Origin: Shigella phage CT02
Direction: 5' to 3' (one strand)
DNA length: 38,876 nucleotides
Sequence record: OP917825
Of the stretch, positions 1-13,628 are shown piece after piece (within the stretch, counting starts at the first letter, position 1; every line of letters begins with the position of its first letter). Position numbers and translations under genes: made by a program. The notes beneath the pieces were generated by a model, which searched no databases, was not told the DNA's origin, and was given only the letters and a program-made list of their open reading frames with translations.

Positions 1-429
1 GCAGCAACCTTCTTCTTGACTATGTGGGGTGGAATTCAGTGCTGGAAAACAGGATATGACGGTCAAAATCAAAACTTCGAGTTCACAAGGAACCCCGTGT
101 CCGATATCCGCCTCAAGAACATCACAGGTAAGGTAGACGGGGCAAAATGTCTCAATAGCATTGAGAGCATGAACTTCGTTGAGTTCACCTTTAAGCGCGA
201 TGCTAACAAGAAGGTTCGCCGTGGTGTTATTGCACAGGAAGTACAGAAGATTGACCCACAATACACTAGCCTGTCTGTCATGGAGGCCACCAACGAGACC
301 CCTCGTATGGAGACCTTACAGTTAGACCTCACGCCCATGACTCTGGATGCCCTAGCAGCAATCAAAGAGTTGTCGAGTCAGGTCAAGGAACTAAAGGCTG
401 AACTTAAACAACTCAAGGAAGCTAAATAA
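1..429 (+). CDS. Tail fiber (gp17-like), C-terminal fragment; reading frame is open at window start. Contains an intramolecular-chaperone / peptidase S74-type self-cleaving domain from about nt 100
   Basis: Frame 1 is open from nt 1 to the stop at 427-429. Motif NPVSDIRLKNI (S74-type Ser-Lys cleavage motif) followed by a strongly helical C-terminus (ALAAIKELSSQVKELKAELKQLKEAK). Sits immediately upstream of holin gene 17.5, as gene 17 does in T7-like genomes. Confidence 0.7.
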   Translation, partial: AATFFLTMWGGIQCWKTGYDGQNQNFEFTRNPVSDIRLKNITGKVDGAKCLNSIESMNFVEFTFKRDANKKVRRGVIAQEVQKIDPQYTSLSVMEATNETPRMETLQLDLTPMTLDALAAIKELSSQVKELKAELKQLKEAK

Positions 430-469
430 CAAAGAGGCCACGGACGGCCTCGATAATAAGGAGGGCACA

Positions 470-673
470 ATGTTGTCATTGGACTTTAATAATGAGTTAG
501 TCAAGGCCGCGCCGATTGTTGGTACGGGGGTAGCTGATGGTGCCGCCCGCCTATTCTTCGGGTTGAGTCTTAATGAGTGGTTCTACGTTGCAGCTATCGC
601 CTACACAGTGGTTCAGATTGGTGCCAAGGTAGTCGATAAGATGATTGACTGGAAACGTGCAAATAAGGAGTAA
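470..673 (+). CDS. Class II holin (gp17.5)
   Basis: 67-aa ORF with RBS AAGGAGG upstream; near-identical from memory to T7 gp17.5 (MLSLDFNNEL...); hydrophobic core. Confidence 0.85.
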   Translation: MLSLDFNNELVKAAPIVGTGVADGAARLFFGLSLNEWFYVAAIAYTVVQIGAKVVDKMIDWKRANKE

Positions 674-676
674 CCT

Positions 677-943
677 ATGAGTGACAAGACTTTAATCAAG
701 CTGCTGGAGATGCTAGACACTGAGATGGCACAGCGTATGCTTGCTGACCTCCAGAGTGAGGAACGCCGAACGCCGCAGCTTTACAACGCAATCGGCAAAC
801 TGTTAGACCGCCATAAGTTCCAAATCAGTAAGCTGACCCCGGATGAGAACATCCTCGGTGGACTGGCGGCTGGTCTGGAAGACTACAACAAAGTGGTCGG
901 CCCTAATGGTCTGACTGACGATGAGACCATCACGCTACAGTAA
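677..943 (+). CDS. Terminase small subunit (gp18)
   Basis: 88-aa ORF; strong recalled similarity to T7 gp18 (MSDKTLIKLLEMLDTEMAQRML...); RBS AAGGAG. Confidence 0.85.
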   Translation: MSDKTLIKLLEMLDTEMAQRMLADLQSEERRTPQLYNAIGKLLDRHKFQISKLTPDENILGGLAAGLEDYNKVVGPNGLTDDETITLQ

Positions 944-949
944 GTGACA

Positions 950-988
950 TACTCAAGGTTCTCCACGCGGGGAGCCTTTATGGATGTT
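950..988 (+). promoter_or_regulatory. RNase III-type processing hairpin (R18.5-like)
   Basis: Member of a 6-copy family with conserved flanks ACTCAAGG...CCTTTATGRAT around an imperfect GC-rich stem. Confidence 0.4.
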
Positions 989-1029
989 ATTTGGTGCATC
1001 TATGTGAAATCTGAAAATTGATGGGAGGT

Positions 1030-1485
1030 GTTATGCTAAAACTTTTACGCAGCGCACTCCCTTGGGTACTCGCCGGGACACTCTTTATGGGTGGCTGGCA
1101 CTTAGGGTCAACCCATGAGAGAGCGAACTGGAAGGAGGTAATCCAAAATGAATACATTGCGAAAACAAAAGCAACCGCAGCAACTCAGGCAGAGGTCAGT
1201 CGGGTATCCCGTGAGTACCAAGAAGAGATTGCAGCCATTGAAGGCAGCACTGATAGGATGCTTAATGACCTGCGTAGTAATAATAAGCGGCTGTCAGTCC
1301 GCATCAAAACCCTTACCGGACTACCAGAAGATAACGGTAGATTCGAGTTTAATGGTCGAGCCGAACTACACGAGTCAGATGCTAAGCGTATTATCGGAAT
1401 AACCCAAGCTGCTGATGCTCACGTAAGAGCGCTCCAGCGTACTATTAAGGAGATGCAGAATGAGCGACACCCAAGCAAACCGTAA
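1030..1485 (+). CDS. i-spanin, Rz-like (gp18.5)
   Basis: ORF 1018..1485; preferred start ATG 1030 directly after RBS GGAGGTG (1021-1027); N-terminal TM segment; resembles T7 gp18.5. Confidence 0.75.
1148..1402 (+). CDS. o-spanin, Rz1-like lipoprotein (gp18.7), embedded in gene 18.5 in the +1 frame
   Basis: 84-aa ORF fully inside 18.5; lipobox-like IISGC; RBS AAGGAGG upstream; resembles T7 gp18.7. Confidence 0.7.
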   Translation: MNTLRKQKQPQQLRQRSVGYPVSTKKRLQPLKAALIGCLMTCVVIISGCQSASKPLPDYQKITVDSSLMVEPNYTSQMLSVLSE

Positions 1486-3223
1486 TGCGCTAATCATTGC
1501 GCAGCTTAAGGGTGACTTCGTGGCCTTCCTGTTTGTATTGTGGAAGGCTTTGGCTCTCCCGCCGCCGACTAAGTGTCAGATTGATATGGCCCGGTGTCTG
1601 GCTAACGGAGACAACAAGAAGTTTATCCTACAGGCTTTCCGTGGTATCGGTAAGTCATTCATCACCTGTGCGTTCGTTGTGTGGACGTTATGGCGTGACC
1701 CTCAGTTGAAGATACTGATCGTCTCTGCATCCAAAGAACGTGCGGACGCTAACTCCATCTTCATCAAGAACATCATTGACCTGCTGCCCTTCTTGGCTGA
1801 GCTAAAGCCTCGCCCCGGTCAGCGCGACTCTGTGATTAGTTTCGATGTTGGCCCTGCCAAGCCTGACCACTCTCCGTCTGTGAAGTCGGTGGGTATCACT
1901 GGTCAGTTGACTGGTAGCCGTGCTGATATCATCATAGCGGATGACGTTGAGATTCCGTCTAACTCCGCAACTCAAGGTGCCCGTGAGAAGCTGTGGACTC
2001 TGGTGCAGGAATTTGCTGCGCTTCTGAAACCACTGCCGACTTCTCGCGTTATCTACCTTGGCACGCCTCAAACCGAAATGACCTTGTACAAGGAACTCGA
2101 AGATAACCGTGGGTACACCACAATCATCTGGCCTGCGCTCTATCCACGTAGCCGTGAGGAAGACTTGTACTATGGCGACCGTCTGGCCCCGATGCTCCGC
2201 GAAGAGTTCAACGATGGGTTCGAGATGCTCCAAGGTCAACCGACTGACCCCGTGCGCTTCGATATGGAAGACCTGCGTGAGCGTGAGTTGGAATACGGTA
2301 AGGCTGGCTTCACTTTGCAGTTCATGCTAAACCCGAACCTGAGTGATGCCGAGAAGTACCCCTTACGCCTCCGTGACGCTATCGTGTGCGGTCTGGACTT
2401 CGAGAAAGCCCCAATGCATTACCAGTGGCTTCCGAACCGTCAGAATCGCAATGAAGAGCTTCCTAACGTGGGACTTAAGGGTGATGATATTCATAGCTAT
2501 CATTCGTGCAGCCAGAACACTGGACAGTACCAGCAACGCATCCTCGTGATTGACCCTAGTGGTCGAGGTAAGGATGAGACTGGTTACGCAGTGTTGTTCA
2601 CCCTGAATGGCTACATCTATCTGATGGAAGCTGGCGGGTTCCGCGATGGTTATTCCGATAAGACCCTTGAGTCCCTCGCTAAGAAAGCGAAGCAGTGGAA
2701 GGTTCAGACAGTGGTCTTCGAGAGTAACTTCGGGGATGGTATGTTTGGTAAGGTATTCAGCCCTGTGCTCCTGAAACACCATGCAGCGCAACTTGAAGAG
2801 ATTCGTGCTCGTGGTATGAAGGAACTACGCATTTGTGATACGCTGGAGCCTGTACTCTCTACGCACCGCCTTGTGATTCGTGACGAGGTGATTCGTGAGG
2901 ACTACCAGACTGCCCGTGACGCTGATGGCAAGCATGACGTTCGCTATTCACTGTTCTACCAGTTGACCCGTATGGCTCGTGAGAAGGGCGCTGTGGCCCA
3001 TGACGACCGACTTGATGCATTAGCATTGGGTGTAGAGTTCTTACGCTCTACGATGGAACTGGACGCCGTGAAGGTGGAAGCTGAGGTGCTTGAGGCGTTC
3101 TTAGAGGAACACATGGAGCACCCAATCCATTCGGCTGGTCATGTAGTTACCTCTATGGTTGACGGTATGGAACTCTATTGGGAGGATGACGATGTGAATA
3201 GCAACAGGTTCATTGACTGGTAG
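1460..3223 (+). CDS. Terminase large subunit (gp19)
   Basis: 587-aa ORF; length and sequence consistent with T7/T3 gp19; RBS AAGGAG. Confidence 0.9.
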
Positions 3224-3303
3224 TTATGCATATTGAGTGCATAAGGAATCATTGAGACCACGGATGGTCACTTTAAGAAACTCCTTAAGAATCAATGAGT
3301 TTG

Positions 3304-3326
3304 CATTAACCCTCACTAAAGGGAGA
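3304..3326 (+). promoter_or_regulatory. T3-class phage RNAP promoter (phiOR position)
   Basis: CATTAACCCTCACTAAAGGGAGA matches the T3 promoter consensus; lies between genes 19 and 19.5. Confidence 0.7.
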
Positions 3327-3467
3327 GAGGGGACTTAAAGCTACTATATAGGTTAGTCATTCAGATTATGCAATGACCCTTTATGCACTTTAAGTCTACC
3401 TCTATGATTGGTGATATTATCATTGTATAATCACCCTACCTTAGAGCAACTGAAAGGAGGTGGCTCA

Positions 3468-3617
3468 ATGTTACGCTTGCTGATTGCCCTGCTGCGTCAT
3501 AGAGTCACTTGGCGATTTCTTCTGGTACTTACTGCTACCCTTGGGTACGCAGGTCTTACTGACCACCTCGGTCAACTGGAAGTGGCCTTTTGCTCTATAC
3601 TCTCTTGTGGGGATTAA
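3468..3617 (+). CDS. gp19.5-like small protein
   Basis: Internal ATG of ORF 3408..3617 preceded by RBS GGAGG; product MLRLLIALLRHRVTWRFL... resembles T7 gp19.5 (49 aa). Confidence 0.6.
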   Translation: MLRLLIALLRHRVTWRFLLVLTATLGYAGLTDHLGQLEVAFCSILSCGD

Positions 3618-3874
3618 ATTATTGTTGATGACCGACAAGCGGCTCTGAGGGATTCGTAGGTATAGTTTCACTACACCAACTCATCCCTGTAGAGTCAACC
3701 CTAAAGGTTATACCTAAAGATGCCCTGTAGTTCGTAATGGTCTTACAGGGTCTTCTGGTGTCTCCTAGATATCCCTTCGGGATGCGCCTGTGGTCTCACC
3801 TATGGTGTGGCCTTACCTAAAGTGGTTGCCTAAAGAGACCCTTTAAGAATTTACCACAAAAATCTGAATGGGTA

Positions 3875-4105
3875 TCTCACAGTTCAAGAACCCAAAGTAC
3901 CCCCATAGCCCTCCTAAAGCCACCTAAAGCCAGCCCTACCCCTCTGGTTTAACCTTCGGTTAACCTTGGGTATCTCCTCAAGTGGCCTATAGGATAGCCT
4001 AGAGTGTTGCCTAAAGTCAATACCTAAAGAGGTGGATGGCTTAAAGAGGCCTTAAAGAGTGTCCTAGTGTACCAGTTCGATAGTACATCTCTATGTGTCC
4101 CTATC
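3875..4105 (+). other. Inferred genome left end and terminal repeat (concatemer junction); exact repeat length not determinable from a single copy
   Basis: TCTCACAGTTCAAGAACCCAAAGTACCCCCATAG at 3875 resembles the T7/T3 genome left-end sequence; followed by CCTAAAG repeats and the phiOL promoter, as at the T7 left end. Confidence 0.4.
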
Positions 4106-4287: not shown

Positions 4288-4310
4288 CTATTACCCTCAC
4301 TAAAGGGAAT
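4288..4310 (+). promoter_or_regulatory. T3-class phage RNAP promoter (phiOL position)
   Basis: TATTACCCTCACTAAAGGGAAT, a one-base-shorter variant of the consensus, upstream of the early region. Confidence 0.55.
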
Positions 4311-4363
4311 GAGGGATACTTAAAGAGGGAATAAAAGATTTAATAAAAGATTTAAATTAATGG

Positions 4364-4393
4364 TTGACTTTGAGTAACCCTTAAGGCTATTAT
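4364..4393 (+). promoter_or_regulatory. Sigma70 early promoter (A1-like)
   Basis: -35 TTGACT (4364-4369), 18-bp spacer, -10 TATTAT (4388-4393); position matches T7 A1. Confidence 0.55.
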
Positions 4394-4492
4394 TCATCTC
4401 GTCAACGGGACAACGGCCTTAAAGCCACTCCCTGAGATACCGGAGTCAACCGGATAAGTAGACAGCCTGATAAGTCATACGAAAAACAGGCA

Positions 4493-4522
4493 TTGACAAC
4501 ATGAAGTAACATGCAGTAAGAT
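4493..4522 (+). promoter_or_regulatory. Sigma70 early promoter (A2-like)
   Basis: -35 TTGACA, 18-bp spacer ACATGAAGTAACATGCAG, -10 TAAGAT; near-identical to recalled T7 A2. Confidence 0.7.
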
Positions 4523-4600
4523 GCACAGCGTCAACCGGACGGATACGGTGTCTTCTAGGTGACTTAAGCGCACCACGGCACATAAAGCGAGACAAAATGG

Positions 4601-4629
4601 TTGACAACATGAAGTAAGCACGGTACGAT
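4601..4629 (+). promoter_or_regulatory. Sigma70 early promoter (A3-like)
   Basis: -35 TTGACA, 17-bp spacer, -10 TACGAT; near-identical to recalled T7 A3. Confidence 0.7.
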
Positions 4630-4841
4630 GTGCCACATGAAAGACACCGAGTGTCGTAGGTGTAAAAACGCGACATAGTGGATAGATGGCGAAAGCACAA
4701 GCGACCACGATAATAAAGAGCTTGTCGCACTTATAACGCAAGTGACGGCTAACACTGAAATAGCCTCGGCTCGACGAAACTGTAGCCTAAAGTTCTTTAA
4801 CAATCTGGATAATAGCTCTTGAGTGTACCGTATAAGCGAAT

Positions 4842-4877
4842 AACTCAAGGTCGCACTGAAAGCGTGGCCTTTATGAT
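4842..4877 (+). promoter_or_regulatory. RNase III-type processing hairpin (R0.3-like)
   Basis: AACTCAAGGTCGCACTGAAAGCGTGGCCTTTATGAT; conserved flank family, upstream of gene 0.3. Confidence 0.55.
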
Positions 4878-4913
4878 ATTCACTTAACACGAACTAACAT
4901 GAGGTAATACCAA

Positions 4914-5372
4914 ATGATTTTCACTAAAGAGCCTGTCAACGTCTTCTATGTACTGGTGTCAGCATTCCGTTCTAACCTTGATGATGAGGTGAACATGAGC
5001 CGCCACCGCCACATGGTGAGCGAATTACGTGCCGCACCGGGTATCTACGGCGAGCTTGAGTCTACCGATTTGACCGGGTGCTATCGTGAGAGTATCGCAC
5101 TGGCTCCAACCGAGGAAAAGACCATGCGTGTACTCTGCAAGAACAAAGAGCAGGCACTACAGGTAGCTCGCTTAGCTTGCAATGAGTATGAGCAAGATTG
5201 CGTACTGGTATACAAATCACAGACTCACACAGCGGGATTGGTGTACGCTAAAGGTATCGACGGGTATAAGGCTGAACGTCTGCCGGGTAGCTTCCAAGAG
5301 GTTCCCAAAAGCGCACCGCTTCAAGGCTGCTTCACGATTGATGAGTTCGGACGCCGCTGGCAGGTGGCCTAA
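4914..5372 (+). CDS. S-adenosylmethionine-degrading enzyme (T3 gp0.3-type SAMase), anti-restriction
   Basis: 152-aa ORF; sequence and length match recalled T3 gp0.3; RBS GAGGT; first gene after the early promoters. Confidence 0.85.
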   Translation: MIFTKEPVNVFYVLVSAFRSNLDDEVNMSRHRHMVSELRAAPGIYGELESTDLTGCYRESIALAPTEEKTMRVLCKNKEQALQVARLACNEYEQDCVLVYKSQTHTAGLVYAKGIDGYKAERLPGSFQEVPKSAPLQGCFTIDEFGRRWQVA

Positions 5373-5373
5373 T

Positions 5374-5529
5374 ATGAATCGCTATTACATCAACGTACCG
5401 GGCTGGGGCGGGTCTCTGACCTGCTACGGATACAACGAACGGGACGCACGGAAACGCTTTAGAGAACAACACGGCTTCGGAAGGCTTCCTAATGGGACGC
5501 GCCTATGGCTGGACGCCCGTGATTGGTAA
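5374..5529 (+). CDS. Small early protein, unknown function (51 aa)
   Basis: Internal ATG of ORF 5182..5529 placed right after the 0.3 stop; the longer version would overlap 0.3 out of frame. Weak RBS. Confidence 0.4.
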   Translation: MNRYYINVPGWGGSLTCYGYNERDARKRFREQHGFGRLPNGTRLWLDARDW

Positions 5530-5534
5530 GTGTT

Positions 5535-5572
5535 AAACTCAAGGTCGCACCGAGTGTGTGGCCTTTATGATT
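5535..5572 (+). promoter_or_regulatory. RNase III-type processing hairpin
   Basis: AACTCAAGGTCGCACCGAGTGTGTGGCCTTTATGAT; conserved flank family. Confidence 0.55.
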
Positions 5573-5593
5573 ATCACTTATAGGACTAACACC

Positions 5594-5794
5594 ATGAGTA
5601 AACTACTGGCAACATCTAAAATAGAAGGCCAATGCACTGTAACACTGCGTGAGTATTACCACGGGTCAATGGGAAGCACCTACGTTGTGCGATACGGTAA
5701 ACAGGTCACACATTGGGTAAACCCGATTTTAGCACAAGAGGATTATCAAGCCTGTGTGATACACCAAGCAACATGTGCGGGCTGGAATGATTGA
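5594..5794 (+). CDS. Small early protein, unknown function (66 aa)
   Basis: ATG 5594 is the first start downstream of the RNase III hairpin; the ORF-track start 5558 lies inside the hairpin. Confidence 0.45.
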   Translation: MSKLLATSKIEGQCTVTLREYYHGSMGSTYVVRYGKQVTHWVNPILAQEDYQACVIHQATCAGWND

Positions 5795-5813
5795 CATTAC
5801 AGGAGGATTGGCA

Positions 5814-5972
5814 ATGGTTATCTTTATCGCTGTCGCACTCTTTGCGGTCGCTGGCTGGTACTCTGAGTCACGCAAGGCCGCTCGCTATCATCACAAGATG
5901 GTTAAACTCATGGAACACTTGGACGCAGAAGGGCGAGGCCGCGAGGCTATCGAGCTGGTGAAACACGCATGA
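5814..5972 (+). CDS. Small early membrane protein, unknown function (52 aa)
   Basis: ATG 5814 preceded by RBS AGGAGG (5801-5806); N-terminal hydrophobic helix VIFIAVALFAVAGW. Confidence 0.45.
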   Translation: MVIFIAVALFAVAGWYSESRKAARYHHKMVKLMEHLDAEGRGREAIELVKHA

Positions 5973-6166
5973 TGATTCTCTTTATCGCACTGGTCTATCT
6001 GTGCATCGCAATGTACTTTATGCGAGACTTTAAGCGCGGTCTGGCAGTACACAAGGCAACGCTGAGTTACTTTAAGTGGGGATTCATCCCACGGTTTACG
6101 GTTCGTGAACGTAACGGACGCTTTAAGGCCAATAAGGTTGGTATCTTCTACATCGCAACTCACTGA
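5969..6166 (+). CDS. Small early membrane protein, unknown function (65 aa)
   Basis: ATGATG start overlaps the preceding stop; N-terminal hydrophobic helix ILFIALVYLCIAMYF. Confidence 0.45.
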   Translation: MMILFIALVYLCIAMYFMRDFKRGLAVHKATLSYFKWGFIPRFTVRERNGRFKANKVGIFYIATH

Positions 6167-6187
6167 TTAACTTAAGGACACACTGAA

Positions 6188-7297
6188 ATGACTTTCACCG
6201 AAGCACAAGCCGCACTCGAAGCTATCCGCAACCTGCCGATTGAGCGCCTGAACGAACGCCAGCCCATGCTGGTGGCTCTTGCGGCTGCTATCGTGAACGA
6301 TGAGACTCAAGACGGCGAACTGACGCAGGCCAAGGGCAATTGGGGTCTGGAGTCTATGGACTACTGGCAGACACTGGCTGAGCGTATGCGTGATGTTGGA
6401 TTTGTACGCTTGGGTAACGGTCACTTTAGCGCAGCATATGAGCACGCATTGTTACCGGGCAAGGTCATCAAGGTAGGCTTTAAGAAAGAGGACTCAGGCG
6501 CAGCCTATGCAGCCTTCTGCCGTATGAACCAAGGCCGGGAAGGTATCCCTACGGTGTACGACATTCAGCGTCATGCTGGTTGTTACACGGTGGTTCTTGA
6601 TTATCTGAACCCGCTTAACGACTGGTGCTACGGTGAGAGTGACAAGGTGCGTCACCACTTCAAAGCCGCACGGGAAATCATTGAGGAGGATTGCTTCGAT
6701 ACCGCCGAAGAGTACCCAATAAGTGACGGGTTCATTGAGACCTGCAAGGATATCCGCAAGTTCTTCTTAGGCATCGCATCGTTCGATTGTCACAGCGGTA
6801 ACATGATGAAAGACCAGATGGGACGCCTGATTATCACAGACCCGGTATCATTCAGCGCAGACGACAAGTTAAAGCCGGGTGAGTTCCACTGTGACCCGGA
6901 TGAACTCATCGCTGAGATTGAGGCGCTGAGAGCGCAGGAAGCGATTGACCGCTGTAAGGCACGCAAGGCACGCCGTGACCCTAAAGGAGACTTTCAGGTA
7001 GCACGAAAGGCCCGTGCCAAATGGCGCAGAAAGGCCTCTAAGCGTGAAAAGCGCAACGCTAAGGTACTCGCTAAGATGCGCATGGATGCCAACGAGCAAC
7101 GCAGGGCCGAGCCTAGGGCACGTATGTTGTGGGGGGATAAGCACTGGCGCAACGCTTGGGTGCAGCACATGAATGTTGACTTCGCACGGCTCGAACTGTT
7201 AGCAGCCGCACAGATGGCACAGATAGACCACAAGGCTATCGTATGGGGCAAGCCGTTACACATAGACGCATACCTTGACAAGAGACTGCAAGGCTGA
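6188..7297 (+). CDS. Ser/Thr protein kinase with host-shutoff domain (gp0.7)
   Basis: 369-aa ORF; conserved block GNGHFSAAY...KVIKVGFKKEDSGAAYAAFCRM...QRHAGCYTVVLD matches recalled T7 gp0.7; basic Arg/Lys-rich C-terminus. Confidence 0.9.
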   Translation: MTFTEAQAALEAIRNLPIERLNERQPMLVALAAAIVNDETQDGELTQAKGNWGLESMDYWQTLAERMRDVGFVRLGNGHFSAAYEHALLPGKVIKVGFKKEDSGAAYAAFCRMNQGREGIPTVYDIQRHAGCYTVVLDYLNPLNDWCYGESDKVRHHFKAAREIIEEDCFDTAEEYPISDGFIETCKDIRKFFLGIASFDCHSGNMMKDQMGRLIITDPVSFSADDKLKPGEFHCDPDELIAEIEALRAQEAIDRCKARKARRDPKGDFQVARKARAKWRRKASKREKRNAKVLAKMRMDANEQRRAEPRARMLWGDKHWRNAWVQHMNVDFARLELLAAAQMAQIDHKAIVWGKPLHIDAYLDKRLQG

Positions 7298-7367
7298 TAG
7301 AGTCTTTTCTTACAGGTCATCATGAGGTGGCCTGAATAGGAACGATTTATCCATAGTGAGGCAAGCA

Positions 7368-10022
7368 ATGAACATCATCGAAACTATCGAAAAGAATGAC
7401 TTCTCTGAAATCGAACTGGCTGCTATCCCGTTCAACACGCTGGCAGACCACTACGGCAGCGCACTGGCTCGTGAACAACTGGCTTTAGAGCACGAGTCTT
7501 ATGAGTTAGGTGAGCGCCGCTTCCTCAAGATGCTGGAGCGTCAAGCGAAAGCTGGTGAGATTGCAGACAACGCAGCCGCTAAGCCGTTACTCGCTACGCT
7601 TCTCCCTAAGTTAACCGCACGTATCGTAGAGTGGCTCGAAGAGTACGCCTCGAAGAAAGGCCGCAAGCCTAGCGCATACGCACCGCTCCAGTTACTCAAG
7701 CCGGAAGCCTCCGCGTTTATCACCCTGAAAGTTATCCTTGCGTCACTGACCAGCACGAACATGACAACCATTCAGGCCGCTGCTGGTATGCTGGGGAAGG
7801 CCATTGAGGATGAGGCACGTTTCGGGCGCATCCGTGACCTCGAAGCGAAGCACTTCAAGAAGCACGTTGAGGAGCAGATTAACAAGCGCCACGGGCAAGT
7901 CTACAAGAAAGCCTTTATGCAGGTGGTCGAGGCTGATATGATTGGTCGAGGTCTGCTTGGTGGCGAGGCGTGGTCTAGCTGGGATAAAGAAACCACGATG
8001 CACGTAGGGATTCGCCTGATTGAAATGCTGATTGAATCCACGGGTCTGGTGGAACTACAGCGACACAATGCAGGTAACGCAGGCTCTGACCATGAGGCAC
8101 TGCAACTGGCCCAAGAGTACGTCGATGTATTAGCGAAGCGTGCAGGCGCTCTGGCGGGTATCTCTCCGATGTTCCAGCCGTGTGTCGTACCGCCGAAACC
8201 TTGGGTAGCAATCACCGGGGGCGGCTATTGGGCTAACGGTCGCAGACCTTTGGCACTCGTTCGCACTCACTCTAAGAAGGGCTTGATGCGCTACGAAGAC
8301 GTTTACATGCCAGAAGTCTACAAGGCTGTGAACCTCGCGCAAAACACCGCATGGAAAATCAACAAGAAAGTTCTTGCGGTTGTCAATGAGATTGTGAACT
8401 GGAAGAACTGCCCGGTCGCAGACATTCCATCTCTGGAGCGCAAAGAGTTACCACCTAAGCCGGACGACATTGACACCAACGAGGCAGCACTCAAGGAGTG
8501 GAAGAAAGCCGCCGCTGGTATCTACCGCTTGGACAAGGCACGAGTGTCTCGCCGTATCAGCTTAGAGTTCATGCTGGAGCAGGCCAACAAGTTCGCAAGC
8601 AAGAAAGCAATCTGGTTCCCTTACAACATGGACTGGCGCGGTCGTGTGTACGCTGTGCCGATGTTCAACCCGCAAGGCAACGACATGACGAAAGGTCTGC
8701 TGACCCTCGCTAAAGGAAAACCAATCGGTGAGGAAGGTTTCTACTGGCTGAAAATCCACGGTGCGAACTGTGCGGGTGTCGATAAGGTTCCTTTCCCTGA
8801 GCGCATCGCGTTCATTGAGAAGCACGTAGACGACATTCTGGCTTGCGCTAAAGACCCTATCAATAACACTTGGTGGGCCGAGCAGGATTCACCCTTCTGT
8901 TTCCTCGCGTTCTGCTTCGAGTATGCAGGCGTTGCGCACCACGGTATGAGCTACAATTGCTCTCTGCCGCTGGCGTTCGACGGGTCTTGCTCCGGTATCC
9001 AGCACTTCTCCGCGATGCTCCGCGATGAGGTAGGCGGTCGCGCGGTTAACCTACTGCCAAGCGAAACCGTGCAGGACATTTACGGCATCGTTGCACAGAA
9101 AGTAAACGAGATTCTCAAACAGGATGCAATCAACGGCACACCTAACGAGATGATTACCGTGACCGATAAGGACACCGGGGAAATCTCTGAGAAGCTCAAG
9201 CTGGGAACCTCAACGCTGGCGCAACAGTGGCTGGCATACGGTGTCACCCGTAGCGTAACTAAACGTTCGGTCATGACGCTGGCTTACGGTTCTAAGGAGT
9301 TCGGCTTTCGTCAACAGGTACTGGACGACACCATTCAGCCTGCGATTGACAGCGGTAAGGGCTTGATGTTCACCCAACCTAACCAAGCGGCTGGCTATAT
9401 GGCTAAGCTGATTTGGGACGCGGTGAGCGTGACCGTAGTCGCAGCGGTTGAGGCGATGAACTGGCTCAAGTCTGCCGCTAAGCTGCTGGCTGCTGAGGTC
9501 AAGGACAAGAAAACCAAGGATATTCTGCGCCACCGTTGCGCGGTTCACTGGACTACGCCGGACGGCTTCCCGGTCTGGCAGGAATACCGCAAGCCACTCC
9601 AGAAGCGTCTCGATATGATTTTCTTAGGGCAATTCCGTCTGCAACCGACGATTAATACCCTCAAGGATTCAGGCATTGACGCACACAAGCAGGAGTCTGG
9701 CATCGCTCCTAACTTTGTTCACTCACAGGATGGTAGCCACCTCCGCATGACAGTCGTTTATGCTCACGAGAAGTATGGCATTGAGTCCTTTGCGCTCATT
9801 CATGACAGCTTTGGGACTATCCCGGCAGACGCTGGTAAGCTCTTTAAGGCTGTGCGTGAAACGATGGTTCTCACCTACGAGAACAACGATGTGCTGGCAG
9901 ACTTCTATGACCAGTTTGCAGACCAGCTACACGAGACCCAACTGGACAAGATGCCTCCGCTTCCGAAGAAAGGAAATCTGAACCTGCAAGACATTCTCAA
10001 GTCTGACTTTGCCTTTGCATAA
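7368..10022 (+). CDS. Single-subunit DNA-dependent RNA polymerase (gene 1), T3 type
   Basis: ORF 7356..10022; start ATG 7368 (MNIIETIEKNDF...) after RBS GAGG; 884 aa; near-identical to recalled T3 RNAP, and the genome's promoters carry the T3 consensus. Confidence 0.95.
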   Translation: MNIIETIEKNDFSEIELAAIPFNTLADHYGSALAREQLALEHESYELGERRFLKMLERQAKAGEIADNAAAKPLLATLLPKLTARIVEWLEEYASKKGRKPSAYAPLQLLKPEASAFITLKVILASLTSTNMTTIQAAAGMLGKAIEDEARFGRIRDLEAKHFKKHVEEQINKRHGQVYKKAFMQVVEADMIGRGLLGGEAWSSWDKETTMHVGIRLIEMLIESTGLVELQRHNAGNAGSDHEALQLAQEYVDVLAKRAGALAGISPMFQPCVVPPKPWVAITGGGYWANGRRPLALVRTHSKKGLMRYEDVYMPEVYKAVNLAQNTAWKINKKVLAVVNEIVNWKNCPVADIPSLERKELPPKPDDIDTNEAALKEWKKAAAGIYRLDKARVSRRISLEFMLEQANKFASKKAIWFPYNMDWRGRVYAVPMFNPQGNDMTKGLLTLAKGKPIGEEGFYWLKIHGANCAGVDKVPFPERIAFIEKHVDDILACAKDPINNTWWAEQDSPFCFLAFCFEYAGVAHHGMSYNCSLPLAFDGSCSGIQHFSAMLRDEVGGRAVNLLPSETVQDIYGIVAQKVNEILKQDAINGTPNEMITVTDKDTGEISEKLKLGTSTLAQQWLAYGVTRSVTKRSVMTLAYGSKEFGFRQQVLDDTIQPAIDSGKGLMFTQPNQAAGYMAKLIWDAVSVTVVAAVEAMNWLKSAAKLLAAEVKDKKTKDILRHRCAVHWTTPDGFPVWQEYRKPLQKRLDMIFLGQFRLQPTINTLKDSGIDAHKQESGIAPNFVHSQDGSHLRMTVVYAHEKYGIESFALIHDSFGTIPADAGKLFKAVRETMVLTYENNDVLADFYDQFADQLHETQLDKMPPLPKKGNLNLQDILKSDFAFA

Positions 10023-13477: not shown

Positions 13478-13628
13478 ACAGAAATACCTTCTGACGCTGG
13501 AGGGTAACACCGAGTCCTTTGAGGTTCCGGTATTCGCCCGGTCTCTCGAAGAGGCAACACTACAGGCTGAACATTATGAGGACGCAGGGTTCGTAGTGAC
13601 TCGCATCCGTCCAGAAGTGAAAGCCTAA
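13464..13628 (+). CDS. Host RNA polymerase inhibitor (gp2-like), probable GTG start
   Basis: RBS AAGGAGG (13451-13457) then GTG 13464; product ...[34 protein letters not shown] resembles T7 gp2; the longer ATG version (13341) would lie entirely within 1.8. Confidence 0.55.

Follow-up and report, generated by a model that had tools for sequence, protein, structure and literature searches.

In the genome of the T3-like Shigella phage CT02 (sequence record OP917825; the window is the whole analysed stretch of 38,876 nucleotides), positions 5374-6166 lie between the genes for the SAMase and the gp0.7 protein kinase and contain four small open reading frames (ORF1 to ORF4), which, according to our comparisons, are orthologues of catalogued, uncharacterised phage-only protein families. 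ORF4 is the T3-type gene 0.6, and its sequence conservation and distribution indicate that this is a near-core, highly constrained gene and a mutually exclusive alternative to the gene for T7 Gp0.6A. The overall explanation that we favour, in which ORF4 would act at the inner membrane on a conserved host machine, is put forward tentatively, as we give it, mechanism included, somewhat less than an even chance of being correct. The four frames are the following:

5374-5529, + strand: ORF1, 51 amino acids, phrog_13225, basic and soluble, with AGGTGG upstream
5594-5794, + strand: ORF2 (gene 0.45), 66 amino acids, phrog_6500, soluble, with TAGGA upstream
5814-5972, + strand: ORF3, 52 amino acids, phrog_25811, N-terminal transmembrane helix and charged helical tail, with AGGAGG upstream
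5969-6166, + strand: ORF4 (T3-type gene 0.6), 65 amino acids, phrog_2385, N-terminal transmembrane helix and very basic C-terminal domain

The sequence-only reading had described four + strand frames of these lengths at these coordinates, and this is exactly what we find. Together, the four frames, all in the same orientation, cover about 90% of the 793 nucleotides as coding sequence, and each is preceded by a well-spaced Shine-Dalgarno sequence. The ATG of ORF1 begins one nucleotide past the stop codon of the SAMase gene, and the stop codon of ORF3 overlaps the start codon of ORF4 (ATGA), by which these two genes appear to be translationally coupled. Every ORF matches a PHROG family, with E-values ranging from 4.5e-25 to 4.7e-45 (the latter for ORF2; 4e-30 for ORF4), and all of these families are of unknown function. 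In BLASTP comparisons, ORF4 and the T3 gene 0.6 protein (NP_523298) share 91% identity over 65 residues (E = 2.7e-45), and ORF2 is 100% identical to gp0.45 of Salmonella phage phiSG-JL2 and 95.5% identical to gp0.45 of Yersinia phage phiYeO3-12. The earlier view that none of the four resembles a protein that can be named thus has to be given up for ORF2 and ORF4. It had also brought into consideration a clear homology to characterised proteins among T3 0.4-0.65; such homology exists, but these T3 proteins carry names without assigned roles. That none of the four has a characterised homologue holds for our searches of Pfam, NCBIfam, PADLOC and the PDB, in which all four sequences and their family alignments gave no significant match; the matches to DUF7316 and Root_cap were dismissed, as they were weak (E > 0.01). 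An exact-sequence look-up showed that the four proteins have been deposited as hypothetical, three of them (ORF1, ORF3 and ORF4) under the name of Shigella phage CT02. The phiSG-JL2 sequence contains ORF1 and ORF3 without annotation, and the two are listed as hypothetical in Poynor, E-4, SH1, SH2 and others.

Could some or all of these ORFs in principle have arisen by chance, in a spacer that encodes no protein? The frames are very short, two of them are unannotated in published relatives such as phiSG-JL2, and the sequence evidence for ORF3 is the thinnest of the four, as its identity to most relatives exceeds 90%. Yet ORF1, ORF2 and ORF4 are conserved as proteins despite saturated synonymous change. 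In pairwise Nei-Gojobori estimates against homologues, the ratio of non-synonymous to synonymous substitution rates (dN/dS) lies between 0.04 and 0.24 for ORF2 and between 0.08 and 0.19 for ORF4; in the distant pairs, the synonymous sites have reached saturation. ORF1 shows 42-59% identity in unrelated phage families, again with saturated synonymous sites. The substitution patterns thus argue for clear purifying selection on these three genes. ORF1 and ORF2 also gave confident AF2 models, with predicted local distance difference test scores (pLDDT) of 91 for a strand-strand-helix-strand fold and 89 for a fold of four beta strands and a C-terminal helix, respectively. For ORF3, a 45%-identical homologue from a different genus, encoded by Escherichia phage JacobBurckhardt between a T7-type gene 0.4 and gene 0.6A, retains the transmembrane helix and the tail motif LDAEGRG.EA.E..KH. 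With the Shine-Dalgarno spacing, the coding density and the start/stop coupling in addition, we regard chance frames as extremely improbable, and the gene calls and orthology assignments for all four ORFs as almost certainly correct. Two minus-strand frames, 5891-6163 (90 amino acids) and 5332-5472, were set aside, since the + frames are those under purifying selection here; the annotated early-region genes of T3, T7, phiSG-JL2 and Poynor are on the + strand throughout.

ORF4 begins with a hydrophobic helix (residues 2-18, hydropathy 2.58) that is followed by RDFKRG, and the protein as a whole is very basic (isoelectric point (pI) 10.5, net charge +8.7). Together with ORF3, it accounts for the single N-terminal transmembrane helix that had been noticed in two of the ORFs and that is supported by our hydropathy analysis. 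Because basic residues follow the hydrophobic segment in both proteins, the predicted topology is that of an outside N-terminus and a cytoplasmic C-terminus. The C-terminal sequence ...PRFTVR..NGRFKANKVGIFY(I/V)ATH is near-invariant in 61 family members. Among 66 distinct nucleotide sequences, two to four synonymous codons are in use for each invariant position in the C-terminal half, and Ala54, for example, is encoded by GCC, GCA, GCT and GCG 20, 20, 18 and 7 times. As synonymous codons vary at invariant residues, the constraint is on the protein and not on an RNA or DNA element. When 1.84 billion representative proteins were scanned with HMMER, just 11 relatives of ORF4 came up, all of them 32-93 amino acids long, from which we conclude that the family is phage-specific and single-domain. 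T3 gp0.6 shares the transmembrane helix, the C-terminal motif and the place 5' of the kinase gene with ORF4, but in T3 the gene is followed and overlapped by gene 0.65. The corresponding gp0.6A of phiSG-JL2 has 79 instead of 65 amino acids (retrieved region 2105-2344), and its extra length comes from an in-frame tandem duplication of the 14 residues FKRGLAIHKATLSY just after the transmembrane helix.

To place the cluster in a wider context, we assembled a set of loci (67 from IMG/VR that contain ORF4, 18 that encode T7 Gp0.6A, plus several GenBank regions; individual loci are numbered with L), and counted records in a collection of 50,697 phage records. The kinase is encoded in about 846 of these records and ORF4 in 596, which is about 70% of the kinase-bearing T7-like phage records; ORF1, ORF2 and ORF3 occur in 88, 160 and 41 records, respectively. 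In the 71 loci compared for gene order, ORF4 lies 5' of the kinase gene wherever there is one, and 3' of the SAMase or ocr gene wherever either is detected, and ORF1, ORF2, ORF3, gene 0.65 and a gene similar to T7 0.4 are variably present across the loci. In Przondovirus-type loci, the identity to CT02 is 64-71% for ORF4, 45-52% for the kinase and 37-38% for the SAMase, and ORF4 is therefore the slowest-evolving gene of the segment. This pattern suggests that ORF4 is a fixed anchor and near-core gene, and that ORF1, ORF2, ORF3 and gene 0.65 are accessory cassettes that come and go. In several IMG/VR genomes (L070, L071, L063), the T3-type gene 0.6 is frameshifted, truncated or fused at its N-terminus, which could be due to sequencing errors or to genuine decay; the idea that the C-terminal motif might be a portable module was rejected, as the C-terminal matches in these three loci belong to copies of the entire gene with a frameshift or truncation, and as the HMMER scan gave just the 11 small relatives.

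An informative comparison is the one with T7. Among 91 kinase-bearing loci, ORF4 was found without T7 gene 0.6A in 72 and gene 0.6A without ORF4 in 18, no locus contains both, and each of the two genes is situated directly 5' of the kinase gene. The two proteins have in common the slot, the class I location, the small size and the very basic character (53 amino acids and pI 10.4 for Gp0.6A, 65 amino acids and pI 10.5 for ORF4). T7 Gp0.6 is an inhibitor of MreB (bioRxiv 10.64898/2026.09.14.751387; PMC6965359). In the mechanism that we propose, each of the four small proteins of the cluster probably acts alone, binding a host component in stoichiometric amounts while the cell is taken over. The transmembrane helix of ORF4 would insert with its N-terminus outside, and the +9-charged cytoplasmic domain, which is predicted from its sequence pattern to be beta-rich, would thereby be held against the inner face of the membrane, where it could bind and disturb a conserved envelope-associated host machine of the Enterobacterales. 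As ORF4 is strongly conserved across phages of many Enterobacterales genera, a housekeeping target would fit better than an arms-race target. By analogy, the most likely target may be MreB and the elongasome, because ORF4 is the exclusive alternative to the MreB inhibitor T7 Gp0.6A in this slot, and because its +9 domain would sit at the membrane, which is the workplace of MreB; taken as an assignment on its own, this target nevertheless has to be called doubtful. A proven precedent for non-homologous genes of analogous function in one slot are ocr and the SAMase, the anti-restriction genes of slot 0.3. ORF3 would probably act at the same membrane, and ORF1 and ORF2 would be soluble inhibitor-type domains.

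Several points weigh against this mechanism. The analogy between ORF4 and Gp0.6A is drawn from genomic position and mutual exclusivity alone, and a slot that is shared by allelic cassettes need not mean a shared function. Unlike ORF4, Gp0.6A has no transmembrane helix. An hhalign comparison of 61 T3-type with 11 T7-type 0.6 sequences gave a probability of 0.9% over 11 columns, by which homology of the T3-type 0.6 to T7 Gp0.6A is rejected, and BLASTP aligned ORF4 with Gp0.6A over just 20 residues (E = 0.029). There is a C-terminal likeness of the type NK[IV]G..Y..TH between the two proteins, but it is not conserved in the T7-type relatives, many of which end earlier, and was therefore dismissed. 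The loci were gathered by querying with these same proteins, which possibly biases the counts; a locus with both ORF4 and T7 gene 0.6A, however, would have surfaced from either query. Finally, our literature searches brought up no experiment on any of the four ORF families. What they yielded on gp0.45, gp0.65, T3 gp0.6 and phage CT02 are genome-description papers, in which the genes are listed as hypothetical and just the transmembrane segment of 0.6 is mentioned (PMC4283147, PMC4925675). As the T3 "0.6" is not a homologue of T7 Gp0.6 in spite of the common number, MreB inhibition must not be passed on to it by name. A wider proposal, which we consider rather unlikely to hold in its entirety, would be that ORF4, as the most conserved early protein in roughly 600 sequenced T7-like phages of the Enterobacterales, represents a new class of membrane-tethered inhibitors of the elongasome or of another inner-membrane machine, independent of T7 Gp0.6 and replacing it at the locus, and that ORF1 in addition represents a new mobile inhibitor of some 50 residues, directed against defence systems or a polymerase, that is common to podoviruses, large myoviruses and a Pseudomonas siphovirus-type phage.

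What alternatives exist for an action of the two membrane proteins on the cytoskeleton? ORF3 and ORF4 could in principle serve superinfection exclusion or modulate the DNA-entry channel at the inner membrane. Both are predicted single-pass proteins of the first minutes of infection and translationally coupled. In this respect they are similar to T4 Imm and Sp, small early membrane proteins that are classical exclusion factors, and the partner behind the high conservation of ORF4 could be the phage's own conserved ejection proteins instead of a protein of the host. However, PHROG and Pfam-type searches revealed no homology to a known exclusion protein, and ORF3 and ORF4 are not an obligate pair, as both occur in 5 loci and ORF4 without ORF3 in 67. 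Moreover, T7-type phages replace ORF4 by a soluble protein without transmembrane helix, which is hard to reconcile with an obligatory role at a membrane channel. We therefore judge an exclusion or channel function to be improbable, and continue to prefer a host machine as the target of ORF4.

For ORF3 itself, the hydrophobic helix comprises residues 1-17 (Kyte-Doolittle value 2.16), with basic residues directly following. A 61-residue version starting at the ATG at position 5787 was rejected in favour of the 52-residue form, as that ATG is out of frame in locus L096. ORF3 occupies the slot of T7 gene 0.5: among 91 kinase-bearing loci, 8 have ORF3 only, 14 have T7 gene 0.5 only, and none has both. 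T7 Gp0.5, which is uncharacterised (PMC12798971), is likewise a small class I protein with a transmembrane helix, but it is nearly all hydrophobic, whereas ORF3 has a charged helical tail of 35 residues, and no sequence homology between the two was detected (the best BLASTP alignment spans 19 hydrophobic residues, with E = 3.1). Either type of gene 0.6 can follow ORF3 (loci L086, L096, L097), and in locus L069 the order is ocr, 0.4, 0.5, T3-type 0.6 and kinase. The 90%-identity cluster of ORF3 (P0082, P0085, P0087) is represented by 557-residue "hypothetical proteins" from JGI on short contigs, which probably arose in gene calling by read-through from ORF3 into the genes after it.

The two soluble proteins, ORF1 and ORF2, show no hydrophobic segment in hydropathy plots, and their models show what may well be compact globular domains of the kind that phages use as protein inhibitors. 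ORF1 is basic (pI 9.8), and its family shares the sharp motif IPG..YG.nE.DAR.R.Rd.GyG.RLP.GT, with Arg26, Arg30 and Arg37 being invariant or near-invariant. Homologues are encoded by the Vequintavirinae myoviruses PBES 02, CB7 and ChuuTotoro and by one Pseudomonas phage of the Casjensviridae, and this occurrence in unrelated phage groups implies that the gene has probably spread horizontally between them. In the retrieved regions, the homologues (43-59% identical to ORF1) are found at 2001-2153 (Cronobacter phage PBES 02), 2001-2180 (CB7) and 2001-2159 (Pseudomonas phage UF_RH7), amid runs of small hypothetical genes in Vequintavirinae genomes of about 150 kb and in the 58-kb Pseudomonas Casjensviridae phage. 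The 62-residue start that has been annotated in Klebsiella phage Poynor was rejected, as it overlaps the SAMase gene and as the distant homologues begin at the Met of the 51-residue form.

By its position, ORF1 is reminiscent of T7 Gp0.4, which also has 51 amino acids and is encoded directly after gene 0.3 and before an RNase III site, but Gp0.4 is acidic (pI 4.7) and not homologous to the basic, strand-strand-helix-strand protein ORF1, and both genes occur together in some phages. For none of the four ORFs was a BLASTP match to T7 Gp0.4 obtained, and a tblastn search with T7 0.4 found nothing in the window. T7 Gp0.4 inhibits FtsZ and is sensed by the defence protein CapRel (PMC13423816). ORF1 was also considered as the Gp2 of this phage, which was rejected because the true gene 2 homologue is present at 13479-13619; the protein encoded there is homologous to T7 Gp2, an inhibitor of RNA polymerase (50% identity over 48 residues). 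T7 Gp2 works through an acidic surface, whereas ORF1 is basic.

Could at least one of the ORFs inhibit a bacterial anti-phage system, with ORF1, ORF2 and ORF3 being the likelier candidates for binding a defence protein or signal? The cluster lies between the SAMase and kinase genes, which are both proven counter-defence genes (PMC11680406, PMC13645617). ORF1, ORF2 and ORF3 show the patchy distribution of cassettes, ORF2 is mobile and takes the first position in phage 13a, and ORF1 has apparently reached Vequintavirinae and a Pseudomonas phage by horizontal transfer, a behaviour known from many anti-defence genes. However, no sequence match to a characterised anti-defence protein or PDB entry was found. 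The model of ORF1 resembles AcrIE2, but this resemblance is weak and concerns a common fold: T7 Gp2 and the ribosomal protein eL20 score nearly as well, and the sequence identity of ORF1 to AcrIE2 and Gp2 is as low as 14-19%. A typical arms-race gene would be expected to be less conserved and less widespread than ORF4. On balance, an anti-defence function appears rather unlikely to us as the explanation of the cluster.

In case of ORF2, the pI is 6.8 and the net charge is -0.3. The gp0.45 of phiYeO3-12 and phiSG-JL2 is the same gene at the same place after the RNase III site, whereas T3 has no gene 0.45. The gene order of the T7-like phage 13a starts with gene 0.45, 5' of ocr (retrieved region 903-1142), and as this position differs, the cassette must be able to move within the early region. 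The predicted ORF2 fold of a beta sheet plus helix may be akin to AP2, integrase arm-binding and WGR domains, which raises the possibility that ORF2 and/or ORF1 regulate host or phage gene expression as nucleic-acid-binding proteins, ORF2 with an AP2/integrase-like DNA-binding fold and ORF1 with a basic, ribosomal-protein-like RNA-binding fold. The basic character of ORF1 with its three (near-)invariant arginines would fit, but the nearly neutral charge of ORF2 is unusual for a DNA-binding protein, its identity to AP2, integrase and WGR domains is only 7-11%, and no sequence-profile match to these families was obtained, nor any sequence-level similarity of either protein to a DNA- or RNA-binding family. 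A regulatory role of this kind is thus quite improbable, and we rather see ORF1 and ORF2 as putative protein inhibitors.

The genomic context of the cluster is characterised by the following features:

4364-4393, + strand: sigma-70-type early promoter match (10/12 consensus scan)
4493-4522, + strand: sigma-70-type early promoter match (10/12 consensus scan)
4601-4629, + strand: sigma-70-type early promoter match (10/12 consensus scan)
4833-4886: RNase III-type hairpin R0.3, 5' of gene 0.3
4914-5372, + strand: gene 0.3, T3-type SAMase, 152 amino acids, 89-97% identical to the SAMases of T3, phiSG-JL2 and Poynor
5528-5579, + strand: RNase III-type hairpin between ORF1 and ORF2, R0.45 in phiSG-JL2 and R0.5 in T3
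6167-6187, + strand: spacer of 21 nucleotides with the Shine-Dalgarno sequence of the kinase gene, at the position of gene 0.65 in T3, phiSG-JL2 and Poynor
6188-7297, + strand: gene 0.7, protein kinase, 369 amino acids, 89-96% identical to the kinases of T3, phiSG-JL2 and Poynor
7296-7351: RNase III-type hairpin R1, 3' of the kinase gene

The flanking SAMase and kinase genes are thus as had been claimed, and the location in class I, the region transcribed by the host RNA polymerase, also stands, with three sigma-70 matches upstream and RNase III-type hairpins flanking the mRNAs. The promoter matches fall where T3 and phiSG-JL2 have their annotated promoters A1-A3, and such sites would drive a class I transcript that contains the ORF cluster. 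The positions of all three hairpins match RNase III sites annotated in T3 or phiSG-JL2, and for this reason the early transcript can be inferred to be divided into three mRNAs, one with gene 0.3 and ORF1, one with ORF2, ORF3, ORF4 and 0.7, and one with gene 1, the phage RNA polymerase gene that comes next after the kinase gene. The hairpin at 5528-5579 has a predicted RNA folding energy of -18.3 kcal/mol (z-score -2.6) and is a near-copy of the one at 4833-4886 (84% identity over 56 nucleotides); an Rfam search of positions 4300-7500 gave no family, and none for the hairpins. On the nucleotide level, 122 phage records match the interval at 80-99% identity, with the best matches to the T3-like phages Poynor and phiSG-JL2, the latter of which belongs to Teetrevirus.

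In the alignment with T3, Poynor and phiSG-JL2, about 150 bp of gene 0.65 are missing at 6167-6187 of CT02. The gene encodes 55 amino acids in T3, begins with UUG (T3 region 1614-1781) and overlaps gene 0.6; in phiSG-JL2 it has been annotated as 0.6B, a frameshift extension. Gene 0.65 was found together with ORF4 in 28 loci and without ORF4 in none. Citrobacter phage SH2 has the same layout without gene 0.65 (PMC4925675), and as the gene is missing in CT02 and SH2, it is apparently dispensable.

The four ORFs belong to the usual inventory of T3-like genomes. All of them had been deposited before, and for two the names 0.45 and 0.6 go back to the genome papers on phiYeO3-12 and T3. Clusters of small class I genes without known function are normal in T7-like phages, and the observation of such a cluster by itself adds little. 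What makes ORF4 the best single candidate of the cluster for an experiment is that it is the positional alternative to T7 Gp0.6A, that it is more conserved than its neighbours, and that it is present in about 70% of the kinase-bearing records. ORF1 deserves attention as a mobile mini-protein of unrelated phage families that several published annotations have overlooked. Should one of the four proteins prove to target a cytoskeletal or defence protein, it would be a new small inhibitor of relevance to therapeutic phages of Klebsiella, E. coli, Shigella and Salmonella.

Two further observations concern the surroundings of the cluster. In some T7-like early regions (L008, L081, L092), ocr is present together with a T3-type SAMase, and the two are therefore not strictly exclusive. 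The CT02 record is circularly permuted relative to T3, with base 1 of T3 (left terminal repeat) aligning at about position 3875, and positions 1-3874 therefore represent the right end of the genome.

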